DNA of 64,000 bases, taken from assembly GCA_019747795.1 (NCBI GenBank), contig JAIEQK010000035.1, positions 3,665 through 67,664 of the forward strand, given 5' to 3'. The notes under the pieces are model-generated. The model was not told the DNA's origin. It was given only the letters and a program-made list of their open reading frames with translations, and made no database searches. The stretch comes from Gammaproteobacteria bacterium. Lineage in GTDB: Bacteria > Pseudomonadota > Gammaproteobacteria > Ga0077536. Made by a program: the position numbers and the translations under genes. Below are positions 16,018 to 62,227 of this stretch, piece after piece. The number at the start of each line of letters is the position of its first letter. Within the stretch, counting starts at the first letter, position 1.

Positions 16018-16061
16018 GGTTCGGCCCCGGAGTCGATCCGGCAAACCTCGCCAGATCCGTT

Positions 16062-26268: not shown

Positions 26269-26919
26269 TCACGCTTCGACGTTGTGCCGCCTGCCACCGC
26301 GAAAGAACATACGCCGCGCCGCCGCATTCCGGCCCGCGAGGCGGTGACGCAGGGTGTCGAGCACCAATGCCTGCACCTCCATCATCTCGATGCCGCCCAG
26401 GTCGTCGAGCCGCACCCAGCGCAGGTCCTCAAGTTCACCGTCGCCGCCGAGTTCGCCACTGAAGAGATCCGCGTGCGCGGCGAAGAAGCGCGCGTGGTAG
26501 CGGATGGGCTGGTGGCTCGGCGTGATCGCGCGTCCGAGAAAGTCGAGCGCGCCGAGGTCGGGCGCCAGCGCGGCATCGCGAAAGCGCGCCCAGGTGTCGT
26601 GACGGACGCGCCCCACGGTGCCCGGCACGCCGAGCATCAGGCCCGCTTCCTCCGACGCTTCGCGCACCGCCGCCATGGCGAGCGCGGTGGCCTTGCTGGT
26701 GGACGAGGCGACCCCGAGCTGCGGCACGATGTGCTCGGCCAGCGCGCGGGCCGGCCGCGCGTGATAGTCGCCGCGCTCGAGGCCGCCGCCGGGAAACACG
26801 TAGACGCCGGGCTTGAAGCGCGCCTTCTGGCCGCGCCGGCCCATCAGGACTTCGTGGTGGGTGGGGCGCTGGCGGTGGATCACCAGGCTGGCAGCGTCGC
26901 GCGGGCGGACCGGTGGCAT
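26269..26919 (-). CDS. NUDIX family hydrolase
   Basis: Internal ATG (cat 26917..26919). The Nudix-box core is AVREASEEAGL, preceded by FPGGGLE. Confidence 0.75.
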   Translation of the reverse strand: MPPVRPRDAASLVIHRQRPTHHEVLMGRRGQKARFKPGVYVFPGGGLERGDYHARPARALAEHIVPQLGVASSTSKATALAMAAVREASEEAGLMLGVPGTVGRVRHDTWARFRDAALAPDLGALDFLGRAITPSHQPIRYHARFFAAHADLFSGELGGDGELEDLRWVRLDDLGGIEMMEVQALVLDTLRHRLAGRNAAARRMFFRGGRRHNVEA

Positions 26920-27031
26920 GGGTAAGGACTCTCCTGGACTGCACCGGAATCTACCACGCCGACGCGCGCTGGGCAGGGCGGCGAGGGCACGCTTATACTG
27001 CAGGCCCGATGTCGCCCGCGCCCGCCTCGCC

Positions 27032-37826: not shown

Positions 37827-39206
37827 CTAGAGGACGAAGTCCGTTGCGGTCAGGTTGTGCAGGCCCGCGAGGTCGATGCGGAAGTCGGCCTGGCGATCGC
37901 CGTTCACGTCACCCTCCACGGTGGTGCGATCGTTGGCCGTGCCGGCGGGGTTGGTGAAGAAAAACCGGAGATCGCCGGCCGTACCGTCGAATGCCGCCTT
38001 GCCGACGAACTTGAAGGCGTTGTTGGCGCCGCCGGTGATGGCGTCGATGCCGGACAGGTCGATGTCGTCGGTGCCGCGCAGGAAGTCCTTGATGAGGTCG
38101 CGGCCGTTGCTGGCCACGGTGCTCTCGCTCAACTGGTTGTAGTCGAAGATGTCGCGCGCCGCGCCGCCGCTGAGGGTGTCGCGGCCGCTGCCGCCGGTCA
38201 GGGTGTCGGTGCCATCACCGCCGTTCAAGGTGTCGTGGCCGGCCACGCCGAGCAGTCTGTCGTTGCCGTCGGCGCCCCCCAGTACGTTGTTGCCCTTGTT
38301 GCCGAGCAGCTGGTTGTTGCCGGTGTTGCCGGTGGCCTTGAGCGGTGCGACGCCGAGCAGGGTGGCGCTGCCGGCGCCCGCGCCCAAGGTGATGTTGCCG
38401 GAGGCCAGGATCTCGCTCGTGCCGGCCAGGTCGACCTTGACGTTGGCGTTGGCCGTGACGGTGACGTTCACCGCGCGGGCGAGGTCGCCGCCGCTGAACT
38501 CGACCACGTAGCTGCCGGCGTCGAGCGCGAGCGCATAGCCGCCGGCCGTGGCGGTGGTGGTGCTGTCCAGCGCGTTCCCTGCCTGCTTCGCGGTGACGCT
38601 GATGCCGGCGCGCTGCTCGCCGATGTCGTAGAAGTTGTCGCCGTCCGCGTCGGCGATGGCGACGCCGGTGATGAAGACCTGGTCGCCGCTGAAGGCGAAG
38701 TTCTGGGTGGCGAGCAGCGAGTCGAAGTTGGTGCCGCTGTCCTGGAAGCCACCGCGCTTGAGGCCGATGCCGAGCTCCTGGAAGTCCTCGAACAGGATGT
38801 TCTCGCGGTGCGGCGGGCTGACGAACAGGCCTTCGTGCTCGTCGAGGGTGAAGCCCGTGAGATTGAAGCCGTTGCCCGTAGTGCCCTGGAAGGCGATGTT
38901 CTCACCCGACGCGGCCGGCGGCGTGAACACGTAGCCGGCCAGTTCCATGCGGCTCTGCGGTGTGCCGTCGCCGATGCCCTCGTGCTCGAACAGGTCGACA
39001 TCGATCATGTGCTGGCTGTGGGCGCGCGCGGCGTCCACCAGCAGCAGGTTGCCGGCCAGCACCTGCTTGGCGGTGGCGGTCAGCGTGCCGGCCGCGAGGC
39101 CCTGGTTCAGATCGATGCCGAAACGCGCCGCTTCCCCCTTGGGATCGAGGCGGGCGCGATTGACGAGTTCGAGCATCAGCTGCTCTTGCACCGTGAACTG
39201 GGCCAT
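37827..39206 (-). CDS. secreted CAP/SCP-domain protein with RTX Ca-binding repeats and serralysin-type C-terminal secretion domain
   Basis: Internal ATG (cat 39204..39206). The CAP region is ELVNRARLDP...AHSQHM...GENIAF. The nonapeptide repeats are GGADGNDRLLGVAGHDTLNGGDGTDTLTGGSGRDTLSGG. The C-terminus is ...GDVNGDRQADFRIDL...TATDFVL. Confidence 0.75.
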   Translation of the reverse strand: MAQFTVQEQLMLELVNRARLDPKGEAARFGIDLNQGLAAGTLTATAKQVLAGNLLLVDAARAHSQHMIDVDLFEHEGIGDGTPQSRMELAGYVFTPPAASGENIAFQGTTGNGFNLTGFTLDEHEGLFVSPPHRENILFEDFQELGIGLKRGGFQDSGTNFDSLLATQNFAFSGDQVFITGVAIADADGDNFYDIGEQRAGISVTAKQAGNALDSTTTATAGGYALALDAGSYVVEFSGGDLARAVNVTVTANANVKVDLAGTSEILASGNITLGAGAGSATLLGVAPLKATGNTGNNQLLGNKGNNVLGGADGNDRLLGVAGHDTLNGGDGTDTLTGGSGRDTLSGGAARDIFDYNQLSESTVASNGRDLIKDFLRGTDDIDLSGIDAITGGANNAFKFVGKAAFDGTAGDLRFFFTNPAGTANDRTTVEGDVNGDRQADFRIDLAGLHNLTATDFVL

Positions 39207-39371
39207 GGGCACTCCTGCGTGAACGATGACGCTATGGTCGCGCGAAGTGTAATGCCGCGTCTGCGAAGCGTTGCAAACAACCGTGGCTTGCGGCACGCAT
39301 TGCCGATCGCGCGGTCGAACCACGAGGCCGGGAGCGCGACGAACCCGGCTGCCAGGGACTAGACTTTGACC

Positions 39372-39863
39372 ATGACCCGCCATCCACCTCCGTTGTTCGC
39401 CGCCGTGCTGGCCACGGCGCTCGCCGCGCCGGTGGGCGCGGTGACCGTGCACACCTGGGTGGACGAGCAGGGCGTGACCCATTTCGCCGACGCGCCGCCC
39501 GGCGGGGCGCAGCCATCAAACGAAGTGGAAGTGGACGAGGGGCCCATGGACGCGCGGGCGGAGGACGACTACTACTCCATCGTGAACCAGTGGCAGCGGC
39601 TGCGCGCCGAGCGCGAGGCGCAGGACGCGCTGGCGCTGGAGCGCGATCGCCTGGACGCCGAGCGCGCGCCGTCACCGCCGGTGGCGCCGACGCCAGCGCC
39701 CGAGGACGACCCGATGTTCCTATCGCCGTACTACGGTTTCGGCGCCGGGCGCTACCCGGGGCACCATCACCACCCGCCGCCGCTGGAGGATTACAGCGGA
39801 CCGCCGTCGCCGCCCGGGTCCTTCGTCAACATCAAGCCGCCGACCTGGCCCAGCCGGCGCTGA
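39372..39863 (+). CDS. DUF4124 domain protein with Pro-rich C-terminus
   Basis: A signal peptide is followed by VHTWVDEQGVTHFADAPP, which is typical of DUF4124. The ATG at 39372 is used; the track start at 39366 is TTG. Confidence 0.7.
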   Translation: MTRHPPPLFAAVLATALAAPVGAVTVHTWVDEQGVTHFADAPPGGAQPSNEVEVDEGPMDARAEDDYYSIVNQWQRLRAEREAQDALALERDRLDAERAPSPPVAPTPAPEDDPMFLSPYYGFGAGRYPGHHHHPPPLEDYSGPPSPPGSFVNIKPPTWPSRR

Positions 39864-39869
39864 AACCGT

Positions 39870-40097
39870 TTAGCGCGTGCGCTTGAGCACGAAGCGGTAG
39901 ACGCCGTCCTTGACCTCGGCGATGAGCAGTTCGTGGCCACTCGCCTCGCAGAAGGCGCGAAAGTCGGCGTCGGCGGCCGGATCGGTCGCCAGCACTTCGA
40001 GCGTCCCGCCGAGCGCGACTTCGCGCAGCGCCTTCTTGGTCTTCAGGATCGGCAGCGGGCAGTTGAGGCCCTGGGTATCGAGGCTGAGGTCGGCCAT
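39870..40097 (-). CDS. TusA/YeeD-family sulfur-carrier protein
   Basis: 75 aa from the internal ATG (cat 40095..40097). The active-site context is LDTQGLNCPLPILKTKKAL. Confidence 0.8.
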   Translation of the reverse strand: MADLSLDTQGLNCPLPILKTKKALREVALGGTLEVLATDPAADADFRAFCEASGHELLIAEVKDGVYRFVLKRTR

Positions 40098-40380
40098 GGT
40101 GACTCGCAGTAGGAACGGCAAGAGTTGCGCGGCGCGACGACTATACTGCTCGCCCGACGCAGCGCGGAGCCAAGGGCCCTGGTCGCAATCATCTCGTTCA
40201 CACCGAGGATGCGCCAGGGTAGTCGCCGCAAGGCGCGATTCGCGGGCAATAGCGCGTTATCGCCAAGAGTCGCGACGCCACCGAGTCAGGCCAGGCGCGG
40301 CCGGGTGTATAGAGAGTTGTGACCAGAATTCTTAGCACGACACACGGTGGCCGTCACGGCCCGCGCGGGCGACGAGGTTC

Positions 40381-41472
40381 ATGACCAGCCTGCGCGAATA
40401 CCTGATCCTCGCGGGGCCGGAGGCCTTGGCCTGGGGCGGACTCGTGCTCGGCTGCCTGTTCGGCGCGCTGGTCGAGGGTACGCGTTTCTGCGCCATGGGC
40501 GCGCTGTCCGACCGGCGCAACTTCGGCGACGGCCGGCGCCTGCGTGCCTGGCTGCTGGCGAGCGCGGTGGCGCTCGTCGGTACGCAGGCGCTTGCGGCGG
40601 GCGGCGTGGTGGAACTGCAGCTTTCCATGTACCTCGCGCCGCGCCTCGACTGGGCCGGGCATCTCCTTGGCGGTCTGCTGTTCGGTATCGGCATGGTGTT
40701 CGCCGGCGGCTGCGCGAGTCGCAACCTGGTCCGCCTGGGCGGCGGCGACCTGCGCGCGGCGGTGGTGCTCGGCGTGACCGGCGTGTTCGCCTACATGACG
40801 CTCGGGGGCGTGCTGGCGCCGCTCCGCGCGGCGCTGGAGACGGCTACGCGCATCGAGTGGCAATCCGCGGCGGACGGTTCGTTGCCGGCGGTGCTGGCGG
40901 CCGCCACCGGCGGCTCGCTCTCGACGCTGCGCGTGGCCGTCCTCGTGCTGGTGGCGGGCGGACTGCTGTTCTACTGCTTCGCCGATCCCGCGTTCCGCCG
41001 CGCGCCGCGCCAGCTGTGGGGCGGGGTCGGTGTCGGCCTGTGCGTGGTCGCCGCCTGGGCGCTGACCGGGCTCGCCTACGACGAGTTCGCGGATCTGCCG
41101 GTGCCGCCCCAGGCGCTGTCCTTCGTGCGTCCGGCGGGCGACACCCTCGACTACCTGCAGCGCTATACCGCGGGCGCGGTGCCGGGCTTCGGCGTGGCGA
41201 CGGTGCTGGGCGTCGTGCTCGGCGCGGCGGCGATGGCGCTGGTCACCCGGCGCTTCCGCCTGACCGGTTTCGCCGATTCGGCCGACACGCTGCGTAACCT
41301 GGCCGGCGGCGCCTTGATGGGCGTCGGCGGCGTGACCGCCATGGGCTGCAGCATCGGCCAGTCGGTCAGCGGGCTGTCGACGCTCGCGCTCGGTTCCTTC
41401 ATCGCCGCGCCGGCGCTGATCGCCGGCGGCTTGATCGGTCTCGCGCTGCTCGAGCGCTCGCTGGAGGGGTGA
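40381..41472 (+). CDS. YeeE/YedE family inner-membrane protein (thiosulfate/sulfur-compound transporter type)
   Basis: 363 aa and multi-TM. Cys-containing motifs are EGTRFCAMGA, FAGGCASRNL and AMGCSIGQ. Confidence 0.85.
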   Translation: MTSLREYLILAGPEALAWGGLVLGCLFGALVEGTRFCAMGALSDRRNFGDGRRLRAWLLASAVALVGTQALAAGGVVELQLSMYLAPRLDWAGHLLGGLLFGIGMVFAGGCASRNLVRLGGGDLRAAVVLGVTGVFAYMTLGGVLAPLRAALETATRIEWQSAADGSLPAVLAAATGGSLSTLRVAVLVLVAGGLLFYCFADPAFRRAPRQLWGGVGVGLCVVAAWALTGLAYDEFADLPVPPQALSFVRPAGDTLDYLQRYTAGAVPGFGVATVLGVVLGAAAMALVTRRFRLTGFADSADTLRNLAGGALMGVGGVTAMGCSIGQSVSGLSTLALGSFIAAPALIAGGLIGLALLERSLEG

Positions 41473-41481
41473 GGGCCGGAC

Positions 41482-42483
41482 TCAGAGCCCGGCCAGGATC
41501 TGCTGCGCGCGGCGATACATGGGCAGCACGCCCAAGCCTATCTTCTCCCACGCCGGGTCATGGCGCTTGCCGGTGCGATGCAGCTTGACGTTCAGGCAGC
41601 CGATGGACGCCAGCCGGTAGCCGGCCAGCGCCTGGTACCAGGGGATCTGCTCGTGACGCCGGCCGACGCCGGCCTCGAAGATCGCGCGGATCTCGTTCGG
41701 CGGCAGCGGATGGATGGGGTGATAGACCGGCGTCCAGTTGGCGTGGTCGGCGATCATCATCAGCCAGCCGACGTCCAGCAGCTTGGCGCCGATGCCGGAG
41801 ATCTCCCAGTCGATGATGCCGGTGAGCTTGCCGTTGGCGTAGAGCAGGTTGCCCGGCTGGTAGTCGCCGTGGAAGAGCCCCACCGGTTCGCCGTCCGGCA
41901 TGCTGTCCAGGAGCGCGCGCTCGGTGCGCTCGGCTTCCTCGACCCAGCTCGAGTCCAGCGCCTGCTGGTAGATGCGTTCCCAGCGGGTGATCTGTTCACG
42001 CAGGGGTTCCGGCTTCTCCCAGTCCGGCAGGTGCGTGCGCCAGTCGAACAAGTGAACCTGCACCAGCGCCTCGGCGCATTGCCGCCACAGCGGCTCGGCC
42101 GCCGCCGCGCTGCGGTCGAATTCGGCCGGCGGATCCCACACGAAGAACACATTGCCCGGCAGCCGTTCCATGACGATGAAGGGCACGTCGAAGTAGGGAT
42201 TCTCGTCGAAGGCGAAGGGCGTGGGCGGCACCGGCACGCCGGCGGCGAGCAGGGCGCGCATCAGCGGCGCCTGGCGATAGACGTCGGTATTGCCGTGGCG
42301 GCGCACGCCGCGCGGCGCGAGCTTGACGACGTAGCCGCGCCGCGCGCCGCCGTCGTCGACTTCGAACAGGAAGGTCAGGCCGGCATGGCCGTCGGAGACC
42401 TTGAGATTCACCACGCGCGCCCGCGTGCCGATTTCGCCGGCGACGAAGGCGTCGAGGCCGGTCTGTACTTCTGCGATGTCCAC
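41482..42483 (-). CDS. phosphotransferase (APH/choline-kinase-like) family protein
   Basis: The Brenner motif is LFHGDYQPGNLLY, followed by IIDWE. The start is taken as an in-frame GTG (cac 42481..42483). The upstream part of ORF 41482..42681 looks non-coding. Confidence 0.7.
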   Translation of the reverse strand: MDIAEVQTGLDAFVAGEIGTRARVVNLKVSDGHAGLTFLFEVDDGGARRGYVVKLAPRGVRRHGNTDVYRQAPLMRALLAAGVPVPPTPFAFDENPYFDVPFIVMERLPGNVFFVWDPPAEFDRSAAAAEPLWRQCAEALVQVHLFDWRTHLPDWEKPEPLREQITRWERIYQQALDSSWVEEAERTERALLDSMPDGEPVGLFHGDYQPGNLLYANGKLTGIIDWEISGIGAKLLDVGWLMMIADHANWTPVYHPIHPLPPNEIRAIFEAGVGRRHEQIPWYQALAGYRLASIGCLNVKLHRTGKRHDPAWEKIGLGVLPMYRRAQQILAGL

Positions 42484-42683
42484 CTTCGAGCCTCGAGCTG
42501 TTGGCGAGGCGTCACGTCTGTGCACGCGCGCCGCAGCGCATGATAACGCAGCGCGACTGGACGCCGGCAGGCGTCCGCGCCACTCAAGAATTCGCCTCGA
42601 GAGCCGCTGCAACAGGTGTCGTCGCGCCCGGCCGCGTGGGTGGGGCGCTGTTCCGATGACGAGCGCGGCGATCGAGGTCACTC

Positions 42684-43379
42684 TTGAATTGCAAGCCGAC
42701 TTGGATTCGTCCTGTCGCCCGCCACGCAGCCTCCGCGCTCGCCGCGCTGCTGCTCAGCCTGGCGCGGCCGGGTCAGGCGCTCGAACTCACGGTGCACGTC
42801 AGGGACGGCACCGGACAGCCAGTAGAGCGCGCCGTGGTGGCGCTGCATCCGGTGGCCGGCGCGCCCCCCGCCGCGGCTCGTGAATGGCTCGTGGACCAGG
42901 TCGACAAGCGCTTCGTGCCGGCCTTGCTCGCCATCCAGGTCGGCGACCGTGTGAACTTTCCGAACAGCGACAACATCCGTCACCACGTCTACTCGTTCTC
43001 ACCGGCAAAGACCTTCGAGCTGCCGCTCTATCACGGCATTCCGGCCGCGCCCGTCACCTTCGAGCGGGCGGGCAAGGTGGTGCTCGGCTGCAACATCCAC
43101 GATCGCATGGCGGCCCACATCTACGTGCTCGACACGCCCTGGTTCGCCGTCGTCGAGAACGGCAGCCATCGGTTCGACGGGCTCGCGCCCGGCGACTACG
43201 AGGCGGAAGTGCTGCACCCGGCCCAGGCCGAGGCCGCGCAGCGCACGCTGGTGCATCTCGCGGCGGCTACCGAGGTCCTGACCATGACCCCGACGCTGCA
43301 GCCGCCGCGGCCTGTCGATGACACGGCACTCTCCCCGCTGGCGCGCAAGTTCAAGGCGCTGCGCGATGCGCGACCTTAG
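42684..43379 (+). CDS. exported cupredoxin-like protein with amicyanin-type copper ligand set
   Basis: Signal peptide is ALAALLLSLARPGQA. Contains FPNSDNIRHHVYSF...LGCNIHDRMAAH, i.e. His ... Cys-x2-His-x2-Met. The only in-frame start is TTG at 42684. Confidence 0.7.
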   Translation: MNCKPTWIRPVARHAASALAALLLSLARPGQALELTVHVRDGTGQPVERAVVALHPVAGAPPAAAREWLVDQVDKRFVPALLAIQVGDRVNFPNSDNIRHHVYSFSPAKTFELPLYHGIPAAPVTFERAGKVVLGCNIHDRMAAHIYVLDTPWFAVVENGSHRFDGLAPGDYEAEVLHPAQAEAAQRTLVHLAAATEVLTMTPTLQPPRPVDDTALSPLARKFKALRDARP

Positions 43380-45702
43380 CTTCGGCCGCCGCATCGTCCT
43401 GCTGCTGGTCGCGGCCCTGGGCGCGGCCCAGGTGCTGGCGCTGGTCGCGGTGCTGCTCGCGACCCACGCCAACGTGCGCCGCGAGTCCCATGCGAACCTC
43501 GAGGTCGCGGAGGGCTTGTTCGAACGGCTCTACGAGGCGCGCTTCAGCCAGCTGACGGCCTCGGTCGAGGTGCTGGCGGCCGATTTCGGTTTCAAGCAGG
43601 CGATGGCCACCGCCGATCTCGCCACCATCAGTTCCGTGCTCGACAATCACGGCGCGCGCGCCGGCGCCGATCTCGCGGCGATCGTCGGCCTCGATGGCCA
43701 GGTGCTGCGCAGCGATGCTCGCCACCCCGCGCTCGAGCGGGAAGCGGCCTGGCCGGGCATCGTCGCGCAACTGCGGCGCGACAACTACGCACTCGCGACC
43801 CTGGCACTGGACGGCGCGGCGCATCAAGTGGTGGCGGTCCCGGTACTGGCACCCGAAGCCATCGGCTGGCTGTTGATGGGATTCGACGTGGGCGCGCCGC
43901 TGGCGGCGGAGATGCGGCGCCTGACCGGACTCGAAGTGTCCTTTCTGGCCGGCGGCGCTCGACCGGCCCTGCTCGGGTCGACCCTCGCGCCGCCTGCCCA
44001 GGCGGCGCTGGCCGCGCTCGCGCCTCACGTCGCGCCGGGTGAACTGCGCCTCGGGCAGGAAGACTACCTGACCCGCACCCTGCCGCTCGGCAGCGTTACC
44101 GCGGTCCTGCAGCAGTCCCTGACCGCGGCGCTTGCGCCCTATCACCGCCTGGCCTGGCAGCTCGCCGGCTGTTTCGCTGTGGTACTGGCGCTGGCGCTCA
44201 GCGCCGGGGTGTCATTGGCGCGCAGCCTCTCCAGGCCGGTGCGCGATCTCGCCGCCGCCGCGGCGCGCATCGGTGAAGGCCGGTACGACGTGGAAGTCGC
44301 GGTGCGCTCGCAGGACGAGATCGGCCAGCTCGCCGCCACCCTGAACAGCATGCAGTTCGAGATCGCCGAGCGCGAGCATCGCCTGGTGCACCAGGCGCAT
44401 CACGATGACCTCACGGGCCTGCCCAACCGCTGGCTGGCGCAGGACCGGCTGCAGGGGGCGATCCACCGCGCGCGGCGCGCATGCCGTCCCTTCACCGTGG
44501 TGCTGCTCGACATGGCGCGCTTCAAGCAGATCAACGACAGCCTCGGCCATCACGTCGGCGACGTGGTGCTGAAGGAGATCGCCCGGCGCCTGGTGGCGCG
44601 GGCGCGTCGCTCCGACACGGTCGCGCGCCTCGGCGGCGATGATTTCCTGCTGCTGCTAGAAGCGACCGACGCCATCCAGGCGCGGGTCATGCTCGGCGTG
44701 CTGCGCGACGCCCTTACCCAGCCCATCGAACTCGAGGGCATGAGCGTGGCGCTGGATTTCCGCGCGGGCCTGGCCAGCTTTCCCGACCACGGCGAAGACG
44801 CGAGCGCGCTGATGCGTCGCGCCGAGATCGCGATGTACGACGCACGCGAAGCCCACGACTGGCTGGTGACCTACCGTCTCGGCCGCGACGACGGGCACCT
44901 GCGCCAGCTGGCGATCGTCGCGACGCTGCCCGGCGCCCTGGCGCGCGACGAACTCACGCTCGTCTACCAGCCCAAGGCGGACATGGCGAGCGGCGGCATC
45001 CACCAGGCCGAGGCCCTGGTGCGCTGGGTCCATCCGGAATTCGGCTACCTGCCGCCCGACGAGTTCGTCACGGTCATCGAGCAGTCCGGCAACATCTCGC
45101 TGCTCACCGCCTGGATCATCGACCGCGCCGCGCGCCAGTGTCGCGACTGGTTGCAGCGCGGCCTGGACGTGCGCGTGAGCATCAACCTCTCGGCGCTGGA
45201 CCTGGCCAATGACGCGCTGCCGGCCTTGCTCGACCGCACGCTCGCGGCCTATGGCCTGGCGCCCCGCCAACTGGGCCTGGAGGTGACCGAGAGCGCGGTG
45301 ATGCGCGATCCGGGCGCCGCGCTGGCGGTGCTGGCCAGGCTGCGCGCGTCGGGCTACGGGCTCGCCATCGACGACTTCGGCACCGGTTACTCCTCCCTGG
45401 CCCAGCTGAAGCGCATGCCGGTGGAGGAACTCAAGATCGACAAGTCCTTCGTGCTGCATCTCAGCGAGGACGCCGAGGACGCGGTGATCGTGAAGTCCAC
45501 CATCGATCTCGCCCACACCCTGGGCCTCAAGGTGGTAGCGGAGGTCGTGGAGAACATCGACGCGTGGCACACCCTGCGGCTTTTCGGCTGCGATCTCGCC
45601 CAGGGCTATTTCATCGCCAAGCCGCTGGCGCCGGCGGACTTCGAAGCCTTCTTGCGTGGCAATGGTCAATCCTGCGCGGCCCTGCTCGAGCGCGCGGCAT
45701 GA
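43366..45702 (+). CDS. membrane sensor with periplasmic domain, HAMP, GGDEF (GGDDF variant) and EAL domains
   Basis: The ATG at 43366 overlaps the upstream gene by 14 nt. Two TM segments flank about 250 aa. HAMP follows. RRSD-x5-GGDDF is present. EAL motifs are EALVRW, DDFGTGYSSL and KIDKSFV. Confidence 0.85.
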   Translation: MRDLSFGRRIVLLLVAALGAAQVLALVAVLLATHANVRRESHANLEVAEGLFERLYEARFSQLTASVEVLAADFGFKQAMATADLATISSVLDNHGARAGADLAAIVGLDGQVLRSDARHPALEREAAWPGIVAQLRRDNYALATLALDGAAHQVVAVPVLAPEAIGWLLMGFDVGAPLAAEMRRLTGLEVSFLAGGARPALLGSTLAPPAQAALAALAPHVAPGELRLGQEDYLTRTLPLGSVTAVLQQSLTAALAPYHRLAWQLAGCFAVVLALALSAGVSLARSLSRPVRDLAAAAARIGEGRYDVEVAVRSQDEIGQLAATLNSMQFEIAEREHRLVHQAHHDDLTGLPNRWLAQDRLQGAIHRARRACRPFTVVLLDMARFKQINDSLGHHVGDVVLKEIARRLVARARRSDTVARLGGDDFLLLLEATDAIQARVMLGVLRDALTQPIELEGMSVALDFRAGLASFPDHGEDASALMRRAEIAMYDAREAHDWLVTYRLGRDDGHLRQLAIVATLPGALARDELTLVYQPKADMASGGIHQAEALVRWVHPEFGYLPPDEFVTVIEQSGNISLLTAWIIDRAARQCRDWLQRGLDVRVSINLSALDLANDALPALLDRTLAAYGLAPRQLGLEVTESAVMRDPGAALAVLARLRASGYGLAIDDFGTGYSSLAQLKRMPVEELKIDKSFVLHLSEDAEDAVIVKSTIDLAHTLGLKVVAEVVENIDAWHTLRLFGCDLAQGYFIAKPLAPADFEAFLRGNGQSCAALLERAA

Positions 45703-46580
45703 GGCAGATGGCGGGACGCCTGCTGGGCGCCGTGCTCCTGCTGCTGGCGGGCGCCGCGTCCGCCGAGATGCCGCGCTTGCCGCACAACAGCCGCATTCTC
45801 GCCACCGGCGGCGCGACGATGATCGAGGGCGCGGCGGGCGGCGGCATCGTGCCCTGGGCGGTGCTGGCGGGTTACGGCTCGAGTGACGAGGTCGGCGCCA
45901 GCGGGTTCTATACCCACGTCGACCTGAAGGACTACTCGCTCGACGCCTTTGGCGTGGCGGCGAGCTGGCACAACCGGGTGGAGGTGTCCCTCGCGCGCCA
46001 GGCCTTCGATCTCGGCACCCTGGGGCGGGCGCTGGGACTGGACGACCATGAACTGCGCCAAAACATTCTCGGTGTGAAGCTGCGCCTGTCGGGCGACCTC
46101 ATCTACGGTCGCTGGCCGCAGGTCGCGGCCGGCATGCAGTACAAGCACAACCTCGACTTCGGCATTCCCGACGCGGTCGGCGCGCGGCATGACGACGACG
46201 TGGAGCTCTACATAAGCGCCGCCAAGCTGTGGCTGGCAGGCCTGTTCGAGCGCAACGTGTTCGGCAACCTCACCCTGCGCTGGTCGCGCGCCAACCAGGG
46301 TGGCCTGCTGGGCTTCGGCGGCGATCGCGGCGACGGGCGCGAGCTGCTGGTCGAGGGCGCGGCCGGCATTTTTCTCACCCGTCATATCGCCCTGGGCGGC
46401 GAGTACCGCCAGCAGCCGGACAAGCTGAGTTTCTCACCGCAGAGCGACTGGTTCGACGCCTTCGTCGCGGTGTTCCCGAACAAGCACCTGTCGCTGGTGG
46501 CGGCCTACGCCGATCTCGGCACGGTCGCGACCTTGCCCGGCCAGCGTGGCTGGTACCTGTCGCTGCAACTCGCGTTCTGA
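45699..46580 (+). CDS. DUF3034 family exported protein (probable outer-membrane beta-barrel)
   Basis: The ATG overlaps the upstream stop (ATGA). Signal peptide is LLLLAGAASA. The GGATMIEGAAGGGIVPWAVLAGYG start is typical of DUF3034. The protein ends in an aromatic residue (LQLAF). Confidence 0.75.
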   Translation: MRQMAGRLLGAVLLLLAGAASAEMPRLPHNSRILATGGATMIEGAAGGGIVPWAVLAGYGSSDEVGASGFYTHVDLKDYSLDAFGVAASWHNRVEVSLARQAFDLGTLGRALGLDDHELRQNILGVKLRLSGDLIYGRWPQVAAGMQYKHNLDFGIPDAVGARHDDDVELYISAAKLWLAGLFERNVFGNLTLRWSRANQGGLLGFGGDRGDGRELLVEGAAGIFLTRHIALGGEYRQQPDKLSFSPQSDWFDAFVAVFPNKHLSLVAAYADLGTVATLPGQRGWYLSLQLAF

Positions 46581-46591
46581 GGGCTCGCACC

Positions 46592-47029
46592 ATGCGTTCA
46601 CCAACGACTCATCGTGTCGCAGGCCTGCTGCTCTTGATGTGCGTGGCGGTCGGCATGGACGCGCGCGCCGCGGACCGTCTCTACGACGACCTCGGCGGCG
46701 CCGACGGCGTCGCGGCGCTGGTCGACCAGTTCCTGGGCAACCTCGCCGACGACGCCCGTATCAACCACTTCTTCGCCGAGACCAACCTGGAGCGTTTTCG
46801 CAGCAAGCTGATCGAGCACCTGTGCGCCCTGGCGGGGGGACCGTGCACCTACTCCGGCGACAGCATGCACCAGGTGCACGCCGGTCTCGGCATCGGCGAG
46901 GCTGCGTTCAACGCGGTGGTCGAGGACCTGATCGAAGCGATGGAGCGCCGGGACATCGGCACCGGCACCCAGAACCGGCTGCTGGCGCTGCTCGCGCCCA
47001 TGCACGGCGACATCGTCGAGCGCCGCTGA
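46592..47029 (+). CDS. group I truncated haemoglobin (trHbN-like) with N-terminal signal peptide
   Basis: Contains LYDDLGG...DDARINHFF...GGPCTYSGDSMHQVHAGLGI, which aligns to trHbN. A 26-aa hydrophobic leader ends in ARA. Confidence 0.8.
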   Translation: MRSPTTHRVAGLLLLMCVAVGMDARAADRLYDDLGGADGVAALVDQFLGNLADDARINHFFAETNLERFRSKLIEHLCALAGGPCTYSGDSMHQVHAGLGIGEAAFNAVVEDLIEAMERRDIGTGTQNRLLALLAPMHGDIVERR

Positions 47030-47051
47030 ACGCGGCACTCGCGATCCAGAC

Positions 47052-47597
47052 TCACGCCGCCGGCGGCGGCGCCGGGTACCACTGCTCGGGCTCCGGCATC
47101 GGCCGGTCAGTCGGGATGATGAAGAGCTCCGCCGTGGTGGTGGTCGCGCCCTCGGTGTCGTAGTAGGCGTAGGGCACCACGCCCTGCCACACGCCCGACT
47201 GGATCATCTTGAAGCCGCGCCGCTCGAACTCCGCGCAGCGCGCTTCCCAGCTCATCTCGCCGCAATGGAAGGCGGTGTGGTGGATGCCCTCGCCGTGCTT
47301 GTCGAGGAACTCGGTGTAGATGCTCGGTCCCTTGGTCGGCTGGATGATCTCCCACATCATGTTGCCGCAGAAGGCGAGGCACAGCTTCATGGCGTAGTCG
47401 GCGGGCTGACCGCGAAAGGTCATGTCGCTGACGGTGGTACGGTCGAAGGTGTAGACCGCCCAGGGCCCGATGCCGAGCTTGAGAAAGCCGTCCATGGTGC
47501 GGTAGATGTCACGGGTCACCACGCAGGTCTGCATGGTCTCGGTCAGGAAACTGTTGCTGAGCGTGGTCGCGCTGGTCGGTGTGGGCACGGCGGCCAT
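47052..47597 (-). CDS. VOC family protein
   Basis: Internal ATG (cat 47595..47597) preceded by GGGGAGAA. Contains GIHHTAF and a VOC-like beta-alpha-beta-beta-beta repeat pattern. Confidence 0.7.
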   Translation of the reverse strand: MAAVPTPTSATTLSNSFLTETMQTCVVTRDIYRTMDGFLKLGIGPWAVYTFDRTTVSDMTFRGQPADYAMKLCLAFCGNMMWEIIQPTKGPSIYTEFLDKHGEGIHHTAFHCGEMSWEARCAEFERRGFKMIQSGVWQGVVPYAYYDTEGATTTTAELFIIPTDRPMPEPEQWYPAPPPAA

Positions 47598-47737
47598 GAT
47601 TCTCCCCCTGGGTGGTGTTGTAACTCGCCTCGAATCAACGACAATACGGCGACGTACGGCGTGCATCTTCGCCCGCCGCCGTGGCCGCAGCCGAGGAGTG
47701 CCCATTGAACCTTCTGAACCACAATTCCTTCAAGGAC

Positions 47738-49135
47738 ATGATGAACGACGTGGTGGACCACGGCAGTTGCTGCGAATGCGGCTCCTGCGTGGTGGTCTGC
47801 CCGCACAACGTCATCGAGTACATCGATGGCAAGCCGAAGCAGACCGCGAAGGAATCCGCCGCCTTTGATTTCTGCGGCGTCAGCGAGGGCGCCGGCTGCG
47901 ACGTGTGCGCGACCGCCTGCCCGCGCCTGTGGCCGCGCGAGTCCCACCTGAAGGACGCGGTGTTCGGCCCGGGGCCCGAGCGGGGCTTCGAGGACATCTT
48001 CGGCGTGTTCAAGCACATCTTCGTCGCCCGCACCAAGCGGCCGGACCTGGCCGAGGCCGGGCAGGACGGCGGCATCGTCACCGCGCTGCTCGCCTGGGCG
48101 CGCGAGACCGGGCGCATCGACGGCGCGGTGGTGTCCGCGGTGGGTGCCGAGGACAAGCCCTGCTTCCCGACTCCCAAGGTCGTCACCACCTACGACGAGA
48201 TCAAGTCCAGCGCCGGCAGCTGGTACACCTACTGCGCGAACAATCTCGCGCTGAACGAAGTCGAGGAGCGTGACCTCAAGCAGGTCGCCTTCGTCGGCGT
48301 GCCCTGCCAGATCACGCCGCTGCGCAAGATGGAGCACATGGATCCGAGCTTCCTGGTGCGCGATGCCAAGAAGCCGAAGATCATCGGTCGCCAGCGCGGC
48401 TTCCTGCGTGGCTACAGCGATCGCGTGGCGTTCAGCGTCGGCCTGTTCTGCACCGAGGTCTTTCAGCCCGAGCTGATGACCGAGAGGATCGAGAAGCAGA
48501 TGGGCATTCCGCTGACCGAGATTCGCCAGTTCAACGTCAAGGGCGAGGTGCTCATCTACCGCAAGAACGGCGACATCGGCCGCATTCCGCTCGAAGAGGC
48601 GATGCACGAGTACCAGCGTCCGGAGTGCAAGCACTGCGGCGACTTCTCCGCCGAGATGGCCGACATCGCCTGCGGTGGCGTCGGCACCGATCGCGCCACC
48701 ATCGTCGTGCTGCGCACCGAGAAGGCGGTCGAGATCTGGCGCGAGTTCCAGGCGACCGGCGAGGTCGAGGTCGAGCCGATCAAGGACAACAAGCGCGCGT
48801 GGAACGTGCTGCTGCGCCTCGCGCGCCGTCAGCGCGAGCGCCCGCCCATCGGTACCGCCCGCGGCGGCGCCGCGCCGGACCTGCCGCAGTACGACAAGGG
48901 GCAGGACCGCGCGCTCGCGCTGTCGCGCCTGACCGGCAAGCTGTCGCCGGCCGAGGTCGAGGCGAATCTCGCCGCCGCCTACGGCGACGAGTCCGCGCCG
49001 CCGGAGATCATGGGCTACATCGCCGGTACCCCGATTCCAGGCGACCCGGGCGATCCGGGCGCGGGCGAGAAGCGCAAGCTGCCACCGCCGCTGTCGCCCG
49101 AAGCGGGCGGCGCGCCGCCCGGCTGGACCGGCTGA
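47738..49135 (+). CDS. FrhB/FdhB-family (coenzyme F420 hydrogenase/dehydrogenase beta-like) Fe-S flavoprotein with Pro/Gly-rich C-terminal tail
   Basis: Two ferredoxin-type Cys clusters are present (CCECGSCVVVCP; CDVCATACP). FrhB_N/C-like motifs are QDGGIVTALL and VAFVGVPCQI...CKHCGDFSAEMADIACGG. The ATG at 47738 is used; a GTG at 47681 is also possible. Confidence 0.75.
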   Translation: MMNDVVDHGSCCECGSCVVVCPHNVIEYIDGKPKQTAKESAAFDFCGVSEGAGCDVCATACPRLWPRESHLKDAVFGPGPERGFEDIFGVFKHIFVARTKRPDLAEAGQDGGIVTALLAWARETGRIDGAVVSAVGAEDKPCFPTPKVVTTYDEIKSSAGSWYTYCANNLALNEVEERDLKQVAFVGVPCQITPLRKMEHMDPSFLVRDAKKPKIIGRQRGFLRGYSDRVAFSVGLFCTEVFQPELMTERIEKQMGIPLTEIRQFNVKGEVLIYRKNGDIGRIPLEEAMHEYQRPECKHCGDFSAEMADIACGGVGTDRATIVVLRTEKAVEIWREFQATGEVEVEPIKDNKRAWNVLLRLARRQRERPPIGTARGGAAPDLPQYDKGQDRALALSRLTGKLSPAEVEANLAAAYGDESAPPEIMGYIAGTPIPGDPGDPGAGEKRKLPPPLSPEAGGAPPGWTG

Positions 49136-49263: not shown

Positions 49264-49719
49264 GTGACCAGTCGATTCGTTCACCTCCTTGCCCTGGGCT
49301 TGATCGGCGGCGTCGTGCAGGGCGCGACCGCGGCCGAGGGGCCGAGCGCTCCGAATTATGAAATCAAGGATTACGCGATTCCGAGCCCGCTGACGTCCTC
49401 GCCCGGCTCTCCCGAGCGGGGTCGCGCCGTGATCCTCGAGCGCGAACTCGGCAACTGCCTTGCCTGTCACGCCATCCCGCTGGACGCCGAGTTCCCCGGC
49501 AGCGTGGGGCCGCCGCTCGCGGGCGTCGGCGCGCGCCTCACACCGGCACAGTTGCGCCTGCGCGTGGTCGATTCGAAGGTGTTGAACCCCGCGAGCGCCA
49601 TGCCCGCCTATTTCCGCAGCAGCGGTCTGAACCGTGTGCAGGCCGAGTATGTCGGCAAGACCATCCTGACGGCGCAGCAGGTGGAGGACGTCGTGGCCTT
49701 CCTGGCGACCCTGAAGTGA
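49264..49719 (+). CDS. soxX: SoxX, mono-haem c-type cytochrome of the SoxAX complex
   Basis: GTG start with a signal peptide. Single CLACH haem motif. Contains MPAYF..., typical of SoxX. Confidence 0.8.
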   Translation: MTSRFVHLLALGLIGGVVQGATAAEGPSAPNYEIKDYAIPSPLTSSPGSPERGRAVILERELGNCLACHAIPLDAEFPGSVGPPLAGVGARLTPAQLRLRVVDSKVLNPASAMPAYFRSSGLNRVQAEYVGKTILTAQQVEDVVAFLATLK

Positions 49720-49739
49720 GCGCGCGACGCGGAGACCCG

Positions 49740-50216
49740 ATGAACGCACCCGACGACAAGCCGCTGCTCGAGCGCCGCGCCCTGCTGGCGGCGAGTCTCG
49801 GCGTCCTGGGTCTCGCCCTGCCGTCCTGGCTCCTGGCCGCGGACGGCGAGGGCAAGGCGCGCGCCGCGGCCGCCATGGCCAAGCTGCTGGCCGGCCGCAA
49901 GCCGGCCGGCGAGGGCCTCAAGCTCACCACGCCCGCCATTGCCGAGAACGGCAACACGGTGCCGATCAGCATCGAGGTCGCGAGTCCGTTCACCGCGAAC
50001 GACTACGTGAAGGCCATTCACGTGTTCGCGGAGGACAACCCGGCGCCCGAGGTGGTGAGCTTCTACTTCACGCCGAGAAGCGGCCGCGCCGCGATCGCGA
50101 CGCGCATCCGTCTCGCGCGCAGCCAGCGCGTCGTCGCGCTCGCCGAACTGTCCGACGGGCGGGTGCTGGAGGCGGCCAACCAGGTCAAGGTCACCATCGG
50201 TGGCTGCGGCGGCTGA
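49740..50216 (+). CDS. soxY: SoxY sulfur-carrier protein
   Basis: Tat-like leader (ERRALLAASLG). The C-terminus is the invariant GGCGG. The ATG at 49740 follows GGAGA; a GTG at 49716 is an alternative. Confidence 0.9.
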   Translation: MNAPDDKPLLERRALLAASLGVLGLALPSWLLAADGEGKARAAAAMAKLLAGRKPAGEGLKLTTPAIAENGNTVPISIEVASPFTANDYVKAIHVFAEDNPAPEVVSFYFTPRSGRAAIATRIRLARSQRVVALAELSDGRVLEAANQVKVTIGGCGG

Positions 50217-50231
50217 CGGAGAGCGCGACTG

Positions 50232-50558
50232 ATGGATGCCCCGCGAGTGAAGGTGCCGGCCAGCGTCAAGGCCGGCGAGCCGTTTCTGATTAAGGTACTG
50301 GCCGCCCATCCCATGGAGTCCGGTCAGCGCAAGGACGAAGCCACCGGCGCGCGCATCCCGCGCAAGATCCTGAACGCGTTCCGCTGCACCTTGGATGGCG
50401 AAGAGATCCTGCGCGTGACGCTGCACCCGGCGGTGTCCGCCAACCCCTACCTGTCGTTCTACGCGACCGCGACCCAGAGCGGTGAACTGCGTTTCGAGTG
50501 GACCGACGACGACGGCAGCGTGACGACCGCAAAGGCCCGGTTCGAGGTCGTGCCATGA
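50232..50558 (+). CDS. soxZ: SoxZ
   Basis: 108 aa. The N-terminus RVKVPASVKAGEPFLIKVLAAHPMESG is typical of SoxZ. Confidence 0.9.
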   Translation: MDAPRVKVPASVKAGEPFLIKVLAAHPMESGQRKDEATGARIPRKILNAFRCTLDGEEILRVTLHPAVSANPYLSFYATATQSGELRFEWTDDDGSVTTAKARFEVVP

Positions 50559-51349
50559 GGCGCCCGCGCATGGCGGCCGTGCTGTGTACGGCCGCGCTGC
50601 TGTGCGCGGCCTGGGTACAGGCCGAGGACTGGGGACGCTACGCGGTGGACGGTCGGCGCAGCGGCTACACCTATGCCGCCGCCGAGACCCGCGCGATGCA
50701 GGACGACGAGTTCGACAACCCCGGCTCGCTGTGGCTCGCGCGCGGCGCGGAACTCTGGCAGACCGCAGAGGGGCAGGCGGGCAAGAGCTGCGCGTCCTGT
50801 CACCAGGAGGCCGCCGCCAGCATGCGCGGGGTGGGCGCGCGTTACCCGGTGTTCGCGCCCGAACTCGGCCGCCTGGTGAACGTCGAGCAACGCATCAACC
50901 AGTGCCGGCGCGAGCACATGGGCGCGGCACCCTGGGCGACCGAGTCCGAGCCGCTGCTCGCCATGACGGCCTACGTGAAGCACCAGTCGCTCGACCTTCC
51001 GGTGAACCCGGCGATCGACGGGCCGGCCGCGCCGTTCTTCGCGCGCGGCCGCCACATCTACCACACGCGCCGTGGCCAGCTCGACCTGGCCTGCATCCAC
51101 TGCCACGAGATGAACCACGGCAACATGCTGCGCGCCCAGCGGCTGAGCGAGGGCATGTCGAACGGCTTCCCCGCCTATCGCCTGAAGTGGCAGACGCTGG
51201 CGTCGCTGCAGCGGCGCATGGAGGGCTGCATGCGCGATGTGCGCGCCGAGCCCTACGCCGATGGCGCGGAGGAGTACGTGGATCTCGAGCTCTACCTCGC
51301 GTGGCGCGCGCGCGGCCTGCCGGTGGAGACGCCGGCGGTGCGCAACTGA
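50555..51349 (+). CDS. soxA: SoxA, di-haem cytochrome c
   Basis: The ATG overlaps the soxZ stop (ATGA). Haem motifs are CASCH and CIHCH. The conserved Cys ligand context is MEGCMRD. Confidence 0.9.
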   Translation: MRRPRMAAVLCTAALLCAAWVQAEDWGRYAVDGRRSGYTYAAAETRAMQDDEFDNPGSLWLARGAELWQTAEGQAGKSCASCHQEAAASMRGVGARYPVFAPELGRLVNVEQRINQCRREHMGAAPWATESEPLLAMTAYVKHQSLDLPVNPAIDGPAAPFFARGRHIYHTRRGQLDLACIHCHEMNHGNMLRAQRLSEGMSNGFPAYRLKWQTLASLQRRMEGCMRDVRAEPYADGAEEYVDLELYLAWRARGLPVETPAVRN

Positions 51350-52418: not shown

Positions 52419-52507
52419 GCGGGTGCTCCACGGCTGCGGGGCCTCGAATTGTGCATCAAGCGGCGCGCGTCCCATACTCGCGACGTTTCCATCGGGGGCG
52501 ACCGGGC

Positions 52508-53131
52508 ATGGCGCGCATCATCCATTACTTCGACTACAAGAGTCCCTACGCCTACCTGGCGCAGGAGGCGGCGTTCGATCTCGCGGCACGCGCGGCGTTC
52601 GAGATCGAGTGGCGACCCTACACGCTCTTGATCGACAAGTACCTCGGCAGCGCGACCCTGGACGCCAACGGGCAGGACACCCTCGGCACGCGCAACGATC
52701 ACCAGTGGCGCCGCGTGCGCTACTCCTACATGGACTGCCGACGCGAGGCGAACCGTCGTGGCCTCACGATCCGCGGGCCGCGCAAGATCTTCGACAGCGT
52801 GCCGGCCCACGTCGCCTTCCTGTTCGCGCGTGAGCGCGGACCTTGGCGCGCGCTGCACGAGGCGATGTTCGCGCGCTTCTGGCGGCGCGAACTCGACATC
52901 GAAGACGTCGCGGTGCTGTGCGCGCTGCTGGACGAACACGGCTTCGACGGCGCAGCCTTTCCCGCCTATCTCGCCGGCGAGGGGCGCGCGCTGCACGATG
53001 CGATGCAGCGTGAGGCCGAGGACGATGGTGTGTTCGGCGTACCGAGCTGGTGGGTGGAGGGCGAGCTCTTCTGGGGCCTCGAGCGACTCGAACGCGTCAC
53101 GGAGCGGCTGGTTTCGCTGCCATCGCGCTGA
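52508..53131 (+). CDS. DsbA-family 2-hydroxychromene-2-carboxylate isomerase-like protein
   Basis: ATG at 52508. The N-terminus is IIHYFDYKSPYAYL and the C-terminus is GVFGVPSWWVEGELFWGLERL. Confidence 0.8.
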   Translation: MARIIHYFDYKSPYAYLAQEAAFDLAARAAFEIEWRPYTLLIDKYLGSATLDANGQDTLGTRNDHQWRRVRYSYMDCRREANRRGLTIRGPRKIFDSVPAHVAFLFARERGPWRALHEAMFARFWRRELDIEDVAVLCALLDEHGFDGAAFPAYLAGEGRALHDAMQREAEDDGVFGVPSWWVEGELFWGLERLERVTERLVSLPSR

Positions 53132-62139: not shown

Positions 62140-62227
62140 TTTAGGCGAGGAGGGCGTCAAGTATCCTGGGCTCGGCGGGTTGCGCACACTACCGACGTGA
62201 CGGCGCCGTCCTCAATCAGCATAGTCG

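Follow-up and report, generated by a model that had tools for sequence, protein, structure and literature searches.

We report the analysis of four contiguous genes, located at positions 42684-47029 of a 64,000-nt stretch of contig JAIEQK010000035.1 from a Gammaproteobacteria bacterium (about 70% GC; hereafter the window, whose coordinates are used throughout), which encode an exported cupredoxin, a membrane-bound enzyme of the second messenger cyclic diguanylate (c-di-GMP), a DUF3034 protein and an exported truncated haemoglobin. Our results indicate that these genes constitute a real four-gene unit, tightly coupled genetically, and that the module they form appears to be uncharacterised and widespread. 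With a confidence slightly better than even, we favour the reading of the four products as one envelope-spanning sensory module, in which the haem and copper state read by the dCache_3 domain of the enzyme would set the rate of c-di-GMP hydrolysis. A preliminary description of this DNA had proposed an extracytoplasmic redox or gas sensing pathway feeding c-di-GMP; as far as sequence analysis goes this idea is supported, and it is strengthened by the co-inheritance of the cupredoxin with the dCache_3 sensor, by the conservation of the EAL catalytic site and by the finding of no published characterisation of the module, or of a comparable example, in the literature searched, where a search on DUF3034 gave nothing relevant.

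The four genes lie on the forward strand as follows: g1 (cupredoxin; 42684-43379, TTG start, 231 aa), g2 (dCache_3-HAMP-GGDEF-EAL protein; 43366-45702, ATG start, 778 aa), g3 (DUF3034; 45699-46580, 293 aa) and g4 (truncated haemoglobin; 46592-47029, 145 aa). The tight packing described previously was reproduced in the window, with a 14-nt overlap between g1 and g2, an ATGA overlap between g2 and g3 and an 11-nt gap between g3 and g4, and an independent gene caller returned identical four-gene junctions in the close relatives L001-L003. As expected of an operon, the genes share a strand and a conserved order, their junctions overlap or are very short, and no terminator above chance interrupts them; the predicted unit is bounded by a divergent APH-family kinase gene upstream and a convergent glyoxalase-family gene downstream. 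The promoter scan found no sigma-70 consensus or promoter-like site at the module, the sole terminator-like site of the terminator scan lies inside g3 and falls below the shuffle expectation, and an Rfam scan of 41400-47800 gave no match. A divergent promoter region probably lies at 42484-42683, between g1 and the APH-family kinase gene (reverse strand); it was placed from the length of this kinase in relatives (333-334 aa), which leaves a divergent intergenic region of about 200-210 nt before g1; given that length, the window kinase open reading frame (41482-42681, reverse strand, 399 aa from a GTG) is probably over-extended. In 74 loci, the region preceding g1 contained FNR/Dnr, Fur and CopR-like boxes no more often than shuffled sequence did.

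The module is conserved far beyond the window. Loci anchored on DUF3034 numbered at least 555 with one genome per species, and the best-scoring 80 were kept and searched with the four window proteins. The preliminary description had made its proposal depend on synteny in other genomes, and this was found: a globin gene lies within 600 nt of DUF3034 in 80 of 80 loci, and all four genes are present in at least 67 of the 80 species genomes. The order cupredoxin, phosphodiesterase (the g2 product), DUF3034, globin is fully colinear in 60 loci; in 7 more, from Betaproteobacteria and Steroidobacter, a globin-cupredoxin-phosphodiesterase block is divergent from DUF3034; 5 loci are cut by a contig end and are consistent with a full module; and 8 hold DUF3034 and globin only, 1-2 of these being truncated. 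Among the hosts are Xanthomonas, Dyella, Arenimonas, Marinobacter, Idiomarina, Shewanella, Halopseudomonas and Cellvibrio; in locus L007, whose proteins display about 50-67% identity, the genes on either side of the module are all different. That the four genes are unrelated neighbours, or mis-annotated reading frames, is therefore effectively refuted, by the shared arrangement of the genes in Gamma- and Betaproteobacteria whose flanks differ, by the overlap of stop and start codons and by strong family matches for all four products. Gene fusions linking the partners were also sought; the only long match, P0420, is a tandem duplicate rather than a cupredoxin-sensor or globin-barrel fusion, and P0274, a protein from a 1-kb contig with both globin and DUF3034 Pfam matches, looks like a read-through call.

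Export was judged by hydropathy scan and by eye; g1, g3 and g4 all begin with basic residues, followed by a hydrophobic core and an AxA-like cleavage site, in agreement with the signal peptides previously noted on three of the four products. The g1 protein carries a predicted Sec-type signal of about 32 residues, followed by a cupredoxin domain (approximately residues 67-149) that lies between N-terminal strands (33-56) and C-terminal strands (153-201); according to the strand order of the AF2 model, from which this two-domain layout was read, these strands appear to form a CarboxypepD_reg-like beta-sandwich, and a helix closes the protein at residues 218-229. Foldseek searches with the model (pLDDT 91.4) retrieved amicyanin, pseudoazurin and plastocyanin, together with the type-1 copper domain of NirK (E ~1e-6 to 1e-4, probability 1.00), which identifies a Greek-key cupredoxin beta-sandwich. 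Furthermore, a weak alignment to amicyanin places H100 (codon 42981-42983) on H53, and C136, H139 and M142 of the C-x2-H-x2-M loop (GCNIHDRM; codons 43089-43109) on C92, H95 and M98. These four copper ligands are invariant in 120 of 120 and in 43 of 43 homologues, and the surrounding motifs FPNxDxxRHHVYSFS and GCNIHDxM are invariant in the 120, in accordance with the complete amicyanin-type ligand set first pointed out. No curated cupredoxin model matched g1 in Pfam (E<=0.01) or NCBIfam (E<=0.1), and NirK was the sole cupredoxin match of a profile search against PDB (E=0.0014); the assignment of g1 as a cupredoxin with a putative type-1 copper site thus rests on ligand motif and fold.

The g1 protein shares the cupredoxin fold and ligand set with amicyanin, pseudoazurin and plastocyanin, and its C-x2-H-x2-M loop has the same length as that of amicyanin; it differs from them in its approximately twofold size, its additional CarboxypepD_reg-like sandwich and the lack of a Pfam cupredoxin match. 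Its relatives are named 'methylamine utilization protein' or 'plastocyanin' in databases. The former name is unsupported, since no methylamine dehydrogenase genes lie nearby: a role in methylamine utilisation was rejected as no mau genes occur among the window reading frames scanned or in related loci, and g1, with 231 aa and an extra domain, departs from amicyanin (MauC), which is a single domain of about 105 aa. Two other proteins share features with g1. The window encodes at 37827-39482 (reverse strand) a secreted protein of the RTX/serralysin-C-terminal type, with HemolysinCabind repeats and a CarboxypepD_reg-like domain as in g1; and the above-mentioned P0420 (575 aa, metagenomic) is a tandem-duplicated cupredoxin-family paralogue with a lipoprotein signal, whose motifs FPNxDDILHNVFS and HCDVHHAM set it apart as a subfamily of its own in which the C-x2-H-x2-M loop is retained.

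The enzyme encoded by g2 has, as previously described, a periplasmic sensor region between two transmembrane segments. By hydropathy, these segments span residues 10-28 (43393-43449) and 266-284 (44161-44217), and the 237-aa region between them (43450-44160) matches dCache_3 (PF14827; residues 39-241, E=1.6e-16, 61.1 bits versus a cut-off of 25.7). Downstream are a HAMP domain (residues 284-332, 44215-44361; Pfam 1.5e-15), a degenerate GGDEF domain (PF00990, 44395-44856; Pfam 2e-41) and an EAL domain (44923-45624; Pfam 1e-70). All EAL catalytic motifs (EAL/EVL, QPK, N, ExxE, the DDFGTG loop 6, KID, E(G)VE and QG) are present in g2 and conserved across 73 orthologues. The GGDEF site, where GG(D/E)EF is expected, reads GGDDF in g2 and drifts among the orthologues (GGDEF in 25, GSDEF in 9, GGDDF and GGGEF in 7 each, AGDEF in 4, others in the remainder), and cyclase activity is thus not a conserved property. 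Since the EAL site is intact and the GGDEF motif is degenerate and variable, g2 is predicted to be a c-di-GMP phosphodiesterase and not a cyclase, with c-di-GMP hydrolysis as the conserved activity; from the dual phosphodiesterase/cyclase proposed initially, only the first half stands. In about 20 of the 80 loci an additional GGDEF or GGDEF-EAL gene directly adjoins the module, either downstream and convergent (L013, L019, L021, L025, L032, L038-L040, L043, L048, L050, L057, L061, L068 and L085) or just upstream of the cupredoxin gene (L015, L034, L058, L063 and L067). The window has no such gene. This adjoining gene may provide the partner cyclase for the phosphodiesterase.

The cupredoxin family proved much larger than DUF3034, with more than 5,630 word-indexed matches and 2,966 clusters at 50% identity (E<=1e-10), and we looked at the gene neighbourhood of six distant members, which come from Acidobacteria, Nitrospirae, Thermoanaerobaculia and soil/metagenome contigs. 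A HAMP sensor adjoins the cupredoxin in 6 of 6 loci. Three of these sensors are dCache_3-HAMP-nucleotide cyclases, and a fourth, a dCache_3-HAMP-PAS histidine kinase, is transcribed divergently; the other two are cut or fragmented genes in which only HAMP was recognized, one of them with an EAL fragment. Their N-terminal ~340 aa display 31-37% identity to g2 in five of the six loci (E 1e-35 to 1e-51), the motif DF[GA]FK..AT.D..T..SA..N...R is common to g2 and five of the six sensors, and overlaps of the g1/g2 type occur in the window and in several distant loci. As the distant sensors keep a g2-like N-terminus and its motifs with differing outputs, the cupredoxin appears to be co-inherited with this particular dCache_3-HAMP sensor across phyla, with the output swapped among EAL, nucleotide cyclase and histidine kinase.

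The g3 protein belongs to DUF3034 (PF11231; E=3e-107, 358 bits). A signal peptide at residues 1-22 (hydropathy and eye) is followed by a strictly conserved Gly-rich N-terminal segment of low model confidence (residues 28-60, 45780-45878) and, in the AF2 model (pLDDT 77.5), by 12 beta-strands (residues 65-292, 45891-46574) that end in an aromatic final residue (...LQLAF). Foldseek matches were the FapF, OmpG, NanC, KdgM and COG4313 barrels, and g3 is accordingly modelled as a 12-stranded outer-membrane beta-barrel; the exported protein of the preliminary description is therefore retained as to its export, and its depiction as merely exported is replaced. DUF3034 resembles these 12- to 14-stranded barrels in predicted fold, size and C-terminal aromatic residue, and is distinguished from them by an identity of only 8-13% and by its own invariant Gly-rich N-terminal segment. 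A second family of about 280-340 aa lies just upstream of the cupredoxin in 4 of the 6 distant loci (L089:5141-5986, L090:5097-6044, L091:5072-5971 and L093:3998-5011; Acidobacteria, Nitrospirae and Thermoanaerobaculia). Its members have a signal peptide, a C-terminal aromatic residue, weak porin matches, 25-32% mutual identity and no significant Pfam match; they are probably outer-membrane barrels, and their identity with DUF3034 was rejected (hhalign probability <1%). Because this family adjoins the cupredoxin in those four loci, an outer-membrane protein seems to be a general third partner.

A barrel next to a cupredoxin-sensor pair, in Proteobacteria as well as in these distant loci, is also what a copper-status sensor would require, in which the cupredoxin would report its apo or holo form to dCache_3 and the barrel would be a channel for copper or another metal, on the model of the copper-resistance operons that combine an outer-membrane PcoB/CopB, a CopC-like protein and a sensor. 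The invariance of the copper site and a multicopper oxidase gene 3 kb away in one distant locus agree with such a role. Nevertheless, His/Cys/His/Met ligands constitute a tight, redox-active type-1 site, not a labile Met/His-rich site of the CopC/CusF kind; no cop, cus or pco genes were found in the window or recurring in the 80 loci; the CopR-like box was not enriched; and the invariant globin partner would be left unexplained. We therefore regard copper-status sensing as unlikely.

The g4 protein matches Bac_globin (PF01152; E=3e-18, 66.6 bits versus a cut-off of 21) and Mycobacterium tuberculosis HbN (E=1e-16 to 2.5e-17), and carries a type-I signal peptide of about 26 residues (hydropathy and eye), which together with its proximal histidine bears out the exported trHbN-type globin claimed before. 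We compared 84 distinct globins from the fetched loci, all linked to DUF3034, and the top 120 homologues. Not one of the 84 or of the 120 sequences lacks the proximal His (His96 in g4, 46877-46879); equally invariant is a CX6C pair formed by the Cys at E16 and another seven residues on (Cys78-x6-Cys85, 46823-46846), which is missing from M. tuberculosis HbN. The Phe at CD1 (F61) is conserved, and Gly-Gly occurs at 35-36 and 82-83. On the distal side the alignment places the apolar residues Leu48 (B10), Phe69 (E7) and Leu73 (E11), within 46592-47029; in the linked globins and homologues B10 is Leu, Ile or Val and never Tyr, and E11 is Leu, Ile, Met or Phe and not Gln. With such an apolar pocket, tight binding of O2 would be less likely than its weak binding or than the sensing of NO (nitric oxide) or redox state; in NO-selective H-NOX sensors, which the g4 subfamily resembles in this trait, an apolar distal pocket causes the preference for NO over O2. 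A signal peptide opens nearly all globins of the subfamily; a lipobox is present in 58 of the 80 linked ones, with a residue at +2 after the lipobox Cys that is never Asp. In Escherichia coli a non-Asp residue at +2 directs lipoproteins to the outer membrane; by this rule, most linked globins are predicted to be outer-membrane lipoproteins beside the barrel. No lipobox was found in the window g4, whose lineage uses a type-I signal peptide. Taken together, these globins are predicted to form a distinct exported subfamily, mostly of lipoproteins and soluble in the window lineage.

This subfamily has its closest described counterpart in the TrHbN-2 type with a hydrophobic distal pocket reported for SbHbN of Shewanella benthica (PMC11904497), with which it shares hydrophobic residues at B10, E7, E11 and G8 and a Cys at E16. 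With both SbHbN and M. tuberculosis HbN it shares the group-1 2-on-2 globin type and the proximal His; it differs from both in its signal peptide or lipobox, in the second invariant Cys that completes CX6C and in its constant adjacency to DUF3034. The words 'signal peptide' and 'periplasm' have 0 occurrences in the SbHbN paper (PMC11904497) and in the trHb family survey.

An exported globin next to a cupredoxin could alternatively serve periplasmic detoxification or electron transfer: the globin would act enzymatically, as an NO dioxygenase, a peroxidase or a binder of sulfide or NO, and be re-reduced by the cupredoxin, with DUF3034 as a channel for the substrate and the phosphodiesterase merely co-expressed or sensing an unrelated ligand through dCache_3. 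Relatives of HbN are NO dioxygenases; cupredoxins donate electrons, and the NirK copper domain is among the best fold matches of g1; the fold matches of DUF3034 include the small-molecule channels COG4313, OmpG and NanC; and DUF3034-globin pairs stand alone in 6-8 genomes. Conversely, all members lack Tyr at B10 and Gln at E11, and with them the O2-stabilising hydrogen-bond network of HbN-type NO dioxygenases, the cupredoxin follows the dCache_3 sensor and not the globin in distant phyla, and g1 and g2 are, from their overlap, apparently translationally coupled. All this makes a detoxification role improbable.

We therefore return to the sensory module, whose components would be an outer-membrane DUF3034 barrel, an exported haem globin, a periplasmic type-1 copper cupredoxin and an inner-membrane dCache_3-HAMP-GGDEF-EAL enzyme with a degenerate GGDEF domain. 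In Proteobacteria, the globin-barrel pair would supply the primary stimulus near the outer membrane, either a diatomic gas (NO or O2) or an oxidant or reductant reaching the haem, and this stimulus would be converted into a redox or ligation state of haem and copper. The cupredoxin would be a dedicated co-sensor docking on dCache_3, which would read the state of the cupredoxin rather than itself bind a small molecule. In LuxP-LuxQ and TorT-TorS, a separately encoded periplasmic co-sensor, whose gene lies beside that of the receptor, binds the ligand, and the periplasmic domain of the receptor reads its state; the logic proposed here would be analogous, with the difference that those co-sensors are solute-binding proteins and that of the module would be a redox metalloprotein. 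Reduced amicyanin undergoes a redox-linked flip of the His on its short C-x2-H-x2-M loop, at the patch where partners dock; similarly, a change dependent on Cu(I)/Cu(II) at the exposed His of the C-x2-H-x2-M loop of g1 might be transmitted through HAMP to EAL, and the resulting shift in c-di-GMP level would act on motility, biofilm behaviour or virulence.

Several observations weigh against this proposal. Six to eight loci hold DUF3034 and globin with no cupredoxin or phosphodiesterase within 7 kb (Granulosicoccus and Dokdonella among them, where the pair lies between pyrG and parE), and each of the two gene pairs can therefore function separately; in distant lineages the cupredoxin and sensor occur with no globin, so that haem is not essential to the core cupredoxin-sensor unit. 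The O2/NO-type (FNR/Dnr) box is not enriched upstream of g1, no Pfam or NCBIfam cupredoxin model recognizes g1, and residues 725-729 of g2 (45538-45552) read AEVVE where 66 of 73 orthologues have AEG[V/I/L]E, with both Glu kept. Finally, Cu(I) and Cu(II) cupredoxin structures differ little, and we know of no precedent for redox read-out by a Cache domain. A bolder extension of the sensory reading can be formulated, which we consider possible and would rather not expect to hold: the blue-copper protein would be the signalling co-receptor of a dedicated Cache domain, in a cassette reused across phyla for c-di-GMP hydrolysis, cyclic-nucleotide synthesis or phosphorelay, and the Proteobacterial input would come from the first known exported, outer-membrane-anchored haemoglobin together with its barrel, through a haem-to-copper relay by which NO, O2 or the external redox potential at the cell surface would be signalled to the cytoplasm.

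Compared with known systems, the module would resemble YfiBNR and RcsF/OMP-IgaA in architecture, H-NOX/HaCE, NosP and DgcO/PdeO in function, and LuxPQ in logic, as a member of none of them; it is best placed in a class of accessory-protein-dependent extracytoplasmic sensing. YfiBNR (TpbB) of Pseudomonas and E. coli is reported to be a three-tier, envelope-spanning control of a HAMP c-di-GMP enzyme by outer-membrane and periplasmic accessory proteins encoded in the same operon, as in the module (PMC3375315, PMC4887326). Its accessory proteins are the OmpA-like lipoprotein YfiB and the repressor YfiR, in contrast to the DUF3034 barrel, globin and cupredoxin, and its output is that of a diguanylate cyclase with no metal cofactors, in contrast to a phosphodiesterase. 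The likeness does not go beyond architecture: against the DgcN/YfiN model, g2 scores 160 bits (cut-off 325) through its HAMP-GGDEF region alone, and g1, g3 and g4 belong to other families. The same topology, that is, outer-membrane barrel and lipoprotein, periplasmic protein and inner-membrane HAMP c-di-GMP enzyme, would suit a sensor of envelope integrity like RcsF/OMP-IgaA or YfiB-YfiR-YfiN, in which a lipoprotein-barrel pair would report perturbation of the outer membrane or of periplasmic distance and the metals would be structural or vestigial. However, across thousands of sequences neither the copper ligands nor the proximal His ever varies, which argues for functional cofactors, and the window globin has no lipobox; integrity sensing by analogy with these systems is consequently quite doubtful.

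Haem control of GGDEF/EAL enzymes is described for H-NOX/HaCE, NosP and the globin-coupled DgcO and PdeO (reviewed in PMC8846402), and the combination of a haem protein with a GGDEF/EAL enzyme is common to these and to the sensory module favoured here. The haem proteins of those systems are cytoplasmic, fused to or binding cytoplasmic domains, whereas the module globin is a 2-on-2 trHbN, predicted to be exported, usually lipidated and facing a periplasmic Cache. In this 2022 census of c-di-GMP inputs (PMC8846402), 'copper' and 'outer membrane' have 0 occurrences, and the globin-coupled sensors treated are all cytoplasmic. A paper on periplasmic c-di-GMP and BtsD in Stenotrophomonas maltophilia was considered and is unrelated to the module; surveys of Xanthomonas GGDEF-EAL proteins list the HAMP proteins XOC_2120/XOC_2944 and GEdpX2/8 without characterisation, none of which could be mapped to g2.

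A first phenotype for the module may already be recorded. In Xanthomonas arboricola, the first gene of the module (AKU48960; L065:3871-4560), which PGAP names 'methylamine utilization protein', lies near the genes of DUF3034 (AKU48958) and globin (AKU48957). Disruption of WDL40_08210, also annotated as 'methylamine utilization protein', by Tn5 in X. arboricola pv. pruni gave a prototrophic mutant, one of 34 with reduced virulence among 2,400 (PMC12942743). From the shared annotation name, WDL40_08210 is likely the g1 gene of the module. BPSS0404 of Burkholderia pseudomallei, another 'methylamine utilization protein', with a 23-49-fold induction in macrophages (PMC3418162), is a further candidate for the family by name.

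Most c-di-GMP enzymes have periplasmic domains of unidentified signal, and the module gives a concrete, testable hypothesis for one such domain at a considerable scale, with at least 555 DUF3034 loci in species-representative genomes and approximately 3,000 cupredoxin clusters at 50% identity, in hosts that include the plant pathogens Xanthomonas oryzae, citri, perforans and arboricola and the marine genera Marinobacter, Idiomarina and Shewanella. If the sensory reading were true, it would bring the first signalling role for a cupredoxin, a function for DUF3034, and a new class of exported or lipoprotein globins, for which the question arises of how haem b reaches an exported globin; in addition, it would define a periplasmic route for the control of biofilm dispersal and virulence by NO, O2 or redox.

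With regard to the remainder of the window, genes for a cNMP-binding protein (14158-16044, reverse strand), an MscS-family channel (26813-29212, forward), a DsbA-like oxidoreductase (52451-53131, forward) and a TonB-dependent receptor (59377-62187, reverse) were identified, with no evident link to the module. Sulfur genes lie upstream, namely TusA (39870-40121, reverse) and a YeeE-like Sulf_transp gene (40381-41472, forward), and downstream are found an FrhB-like Fe-S protein gene (47681-49135) and soxY, soxZ and soxA (49716-51349). A functional link of the module to TusA, Sulf_transp and sox was considered and rejected as a general feature, as these flanks are common to close relatives only and occur neither in L007 nor in most of the 80 loci; since the module of L007 has entirely different flanks, the neighbouring sulfur genes of the window are incidental.

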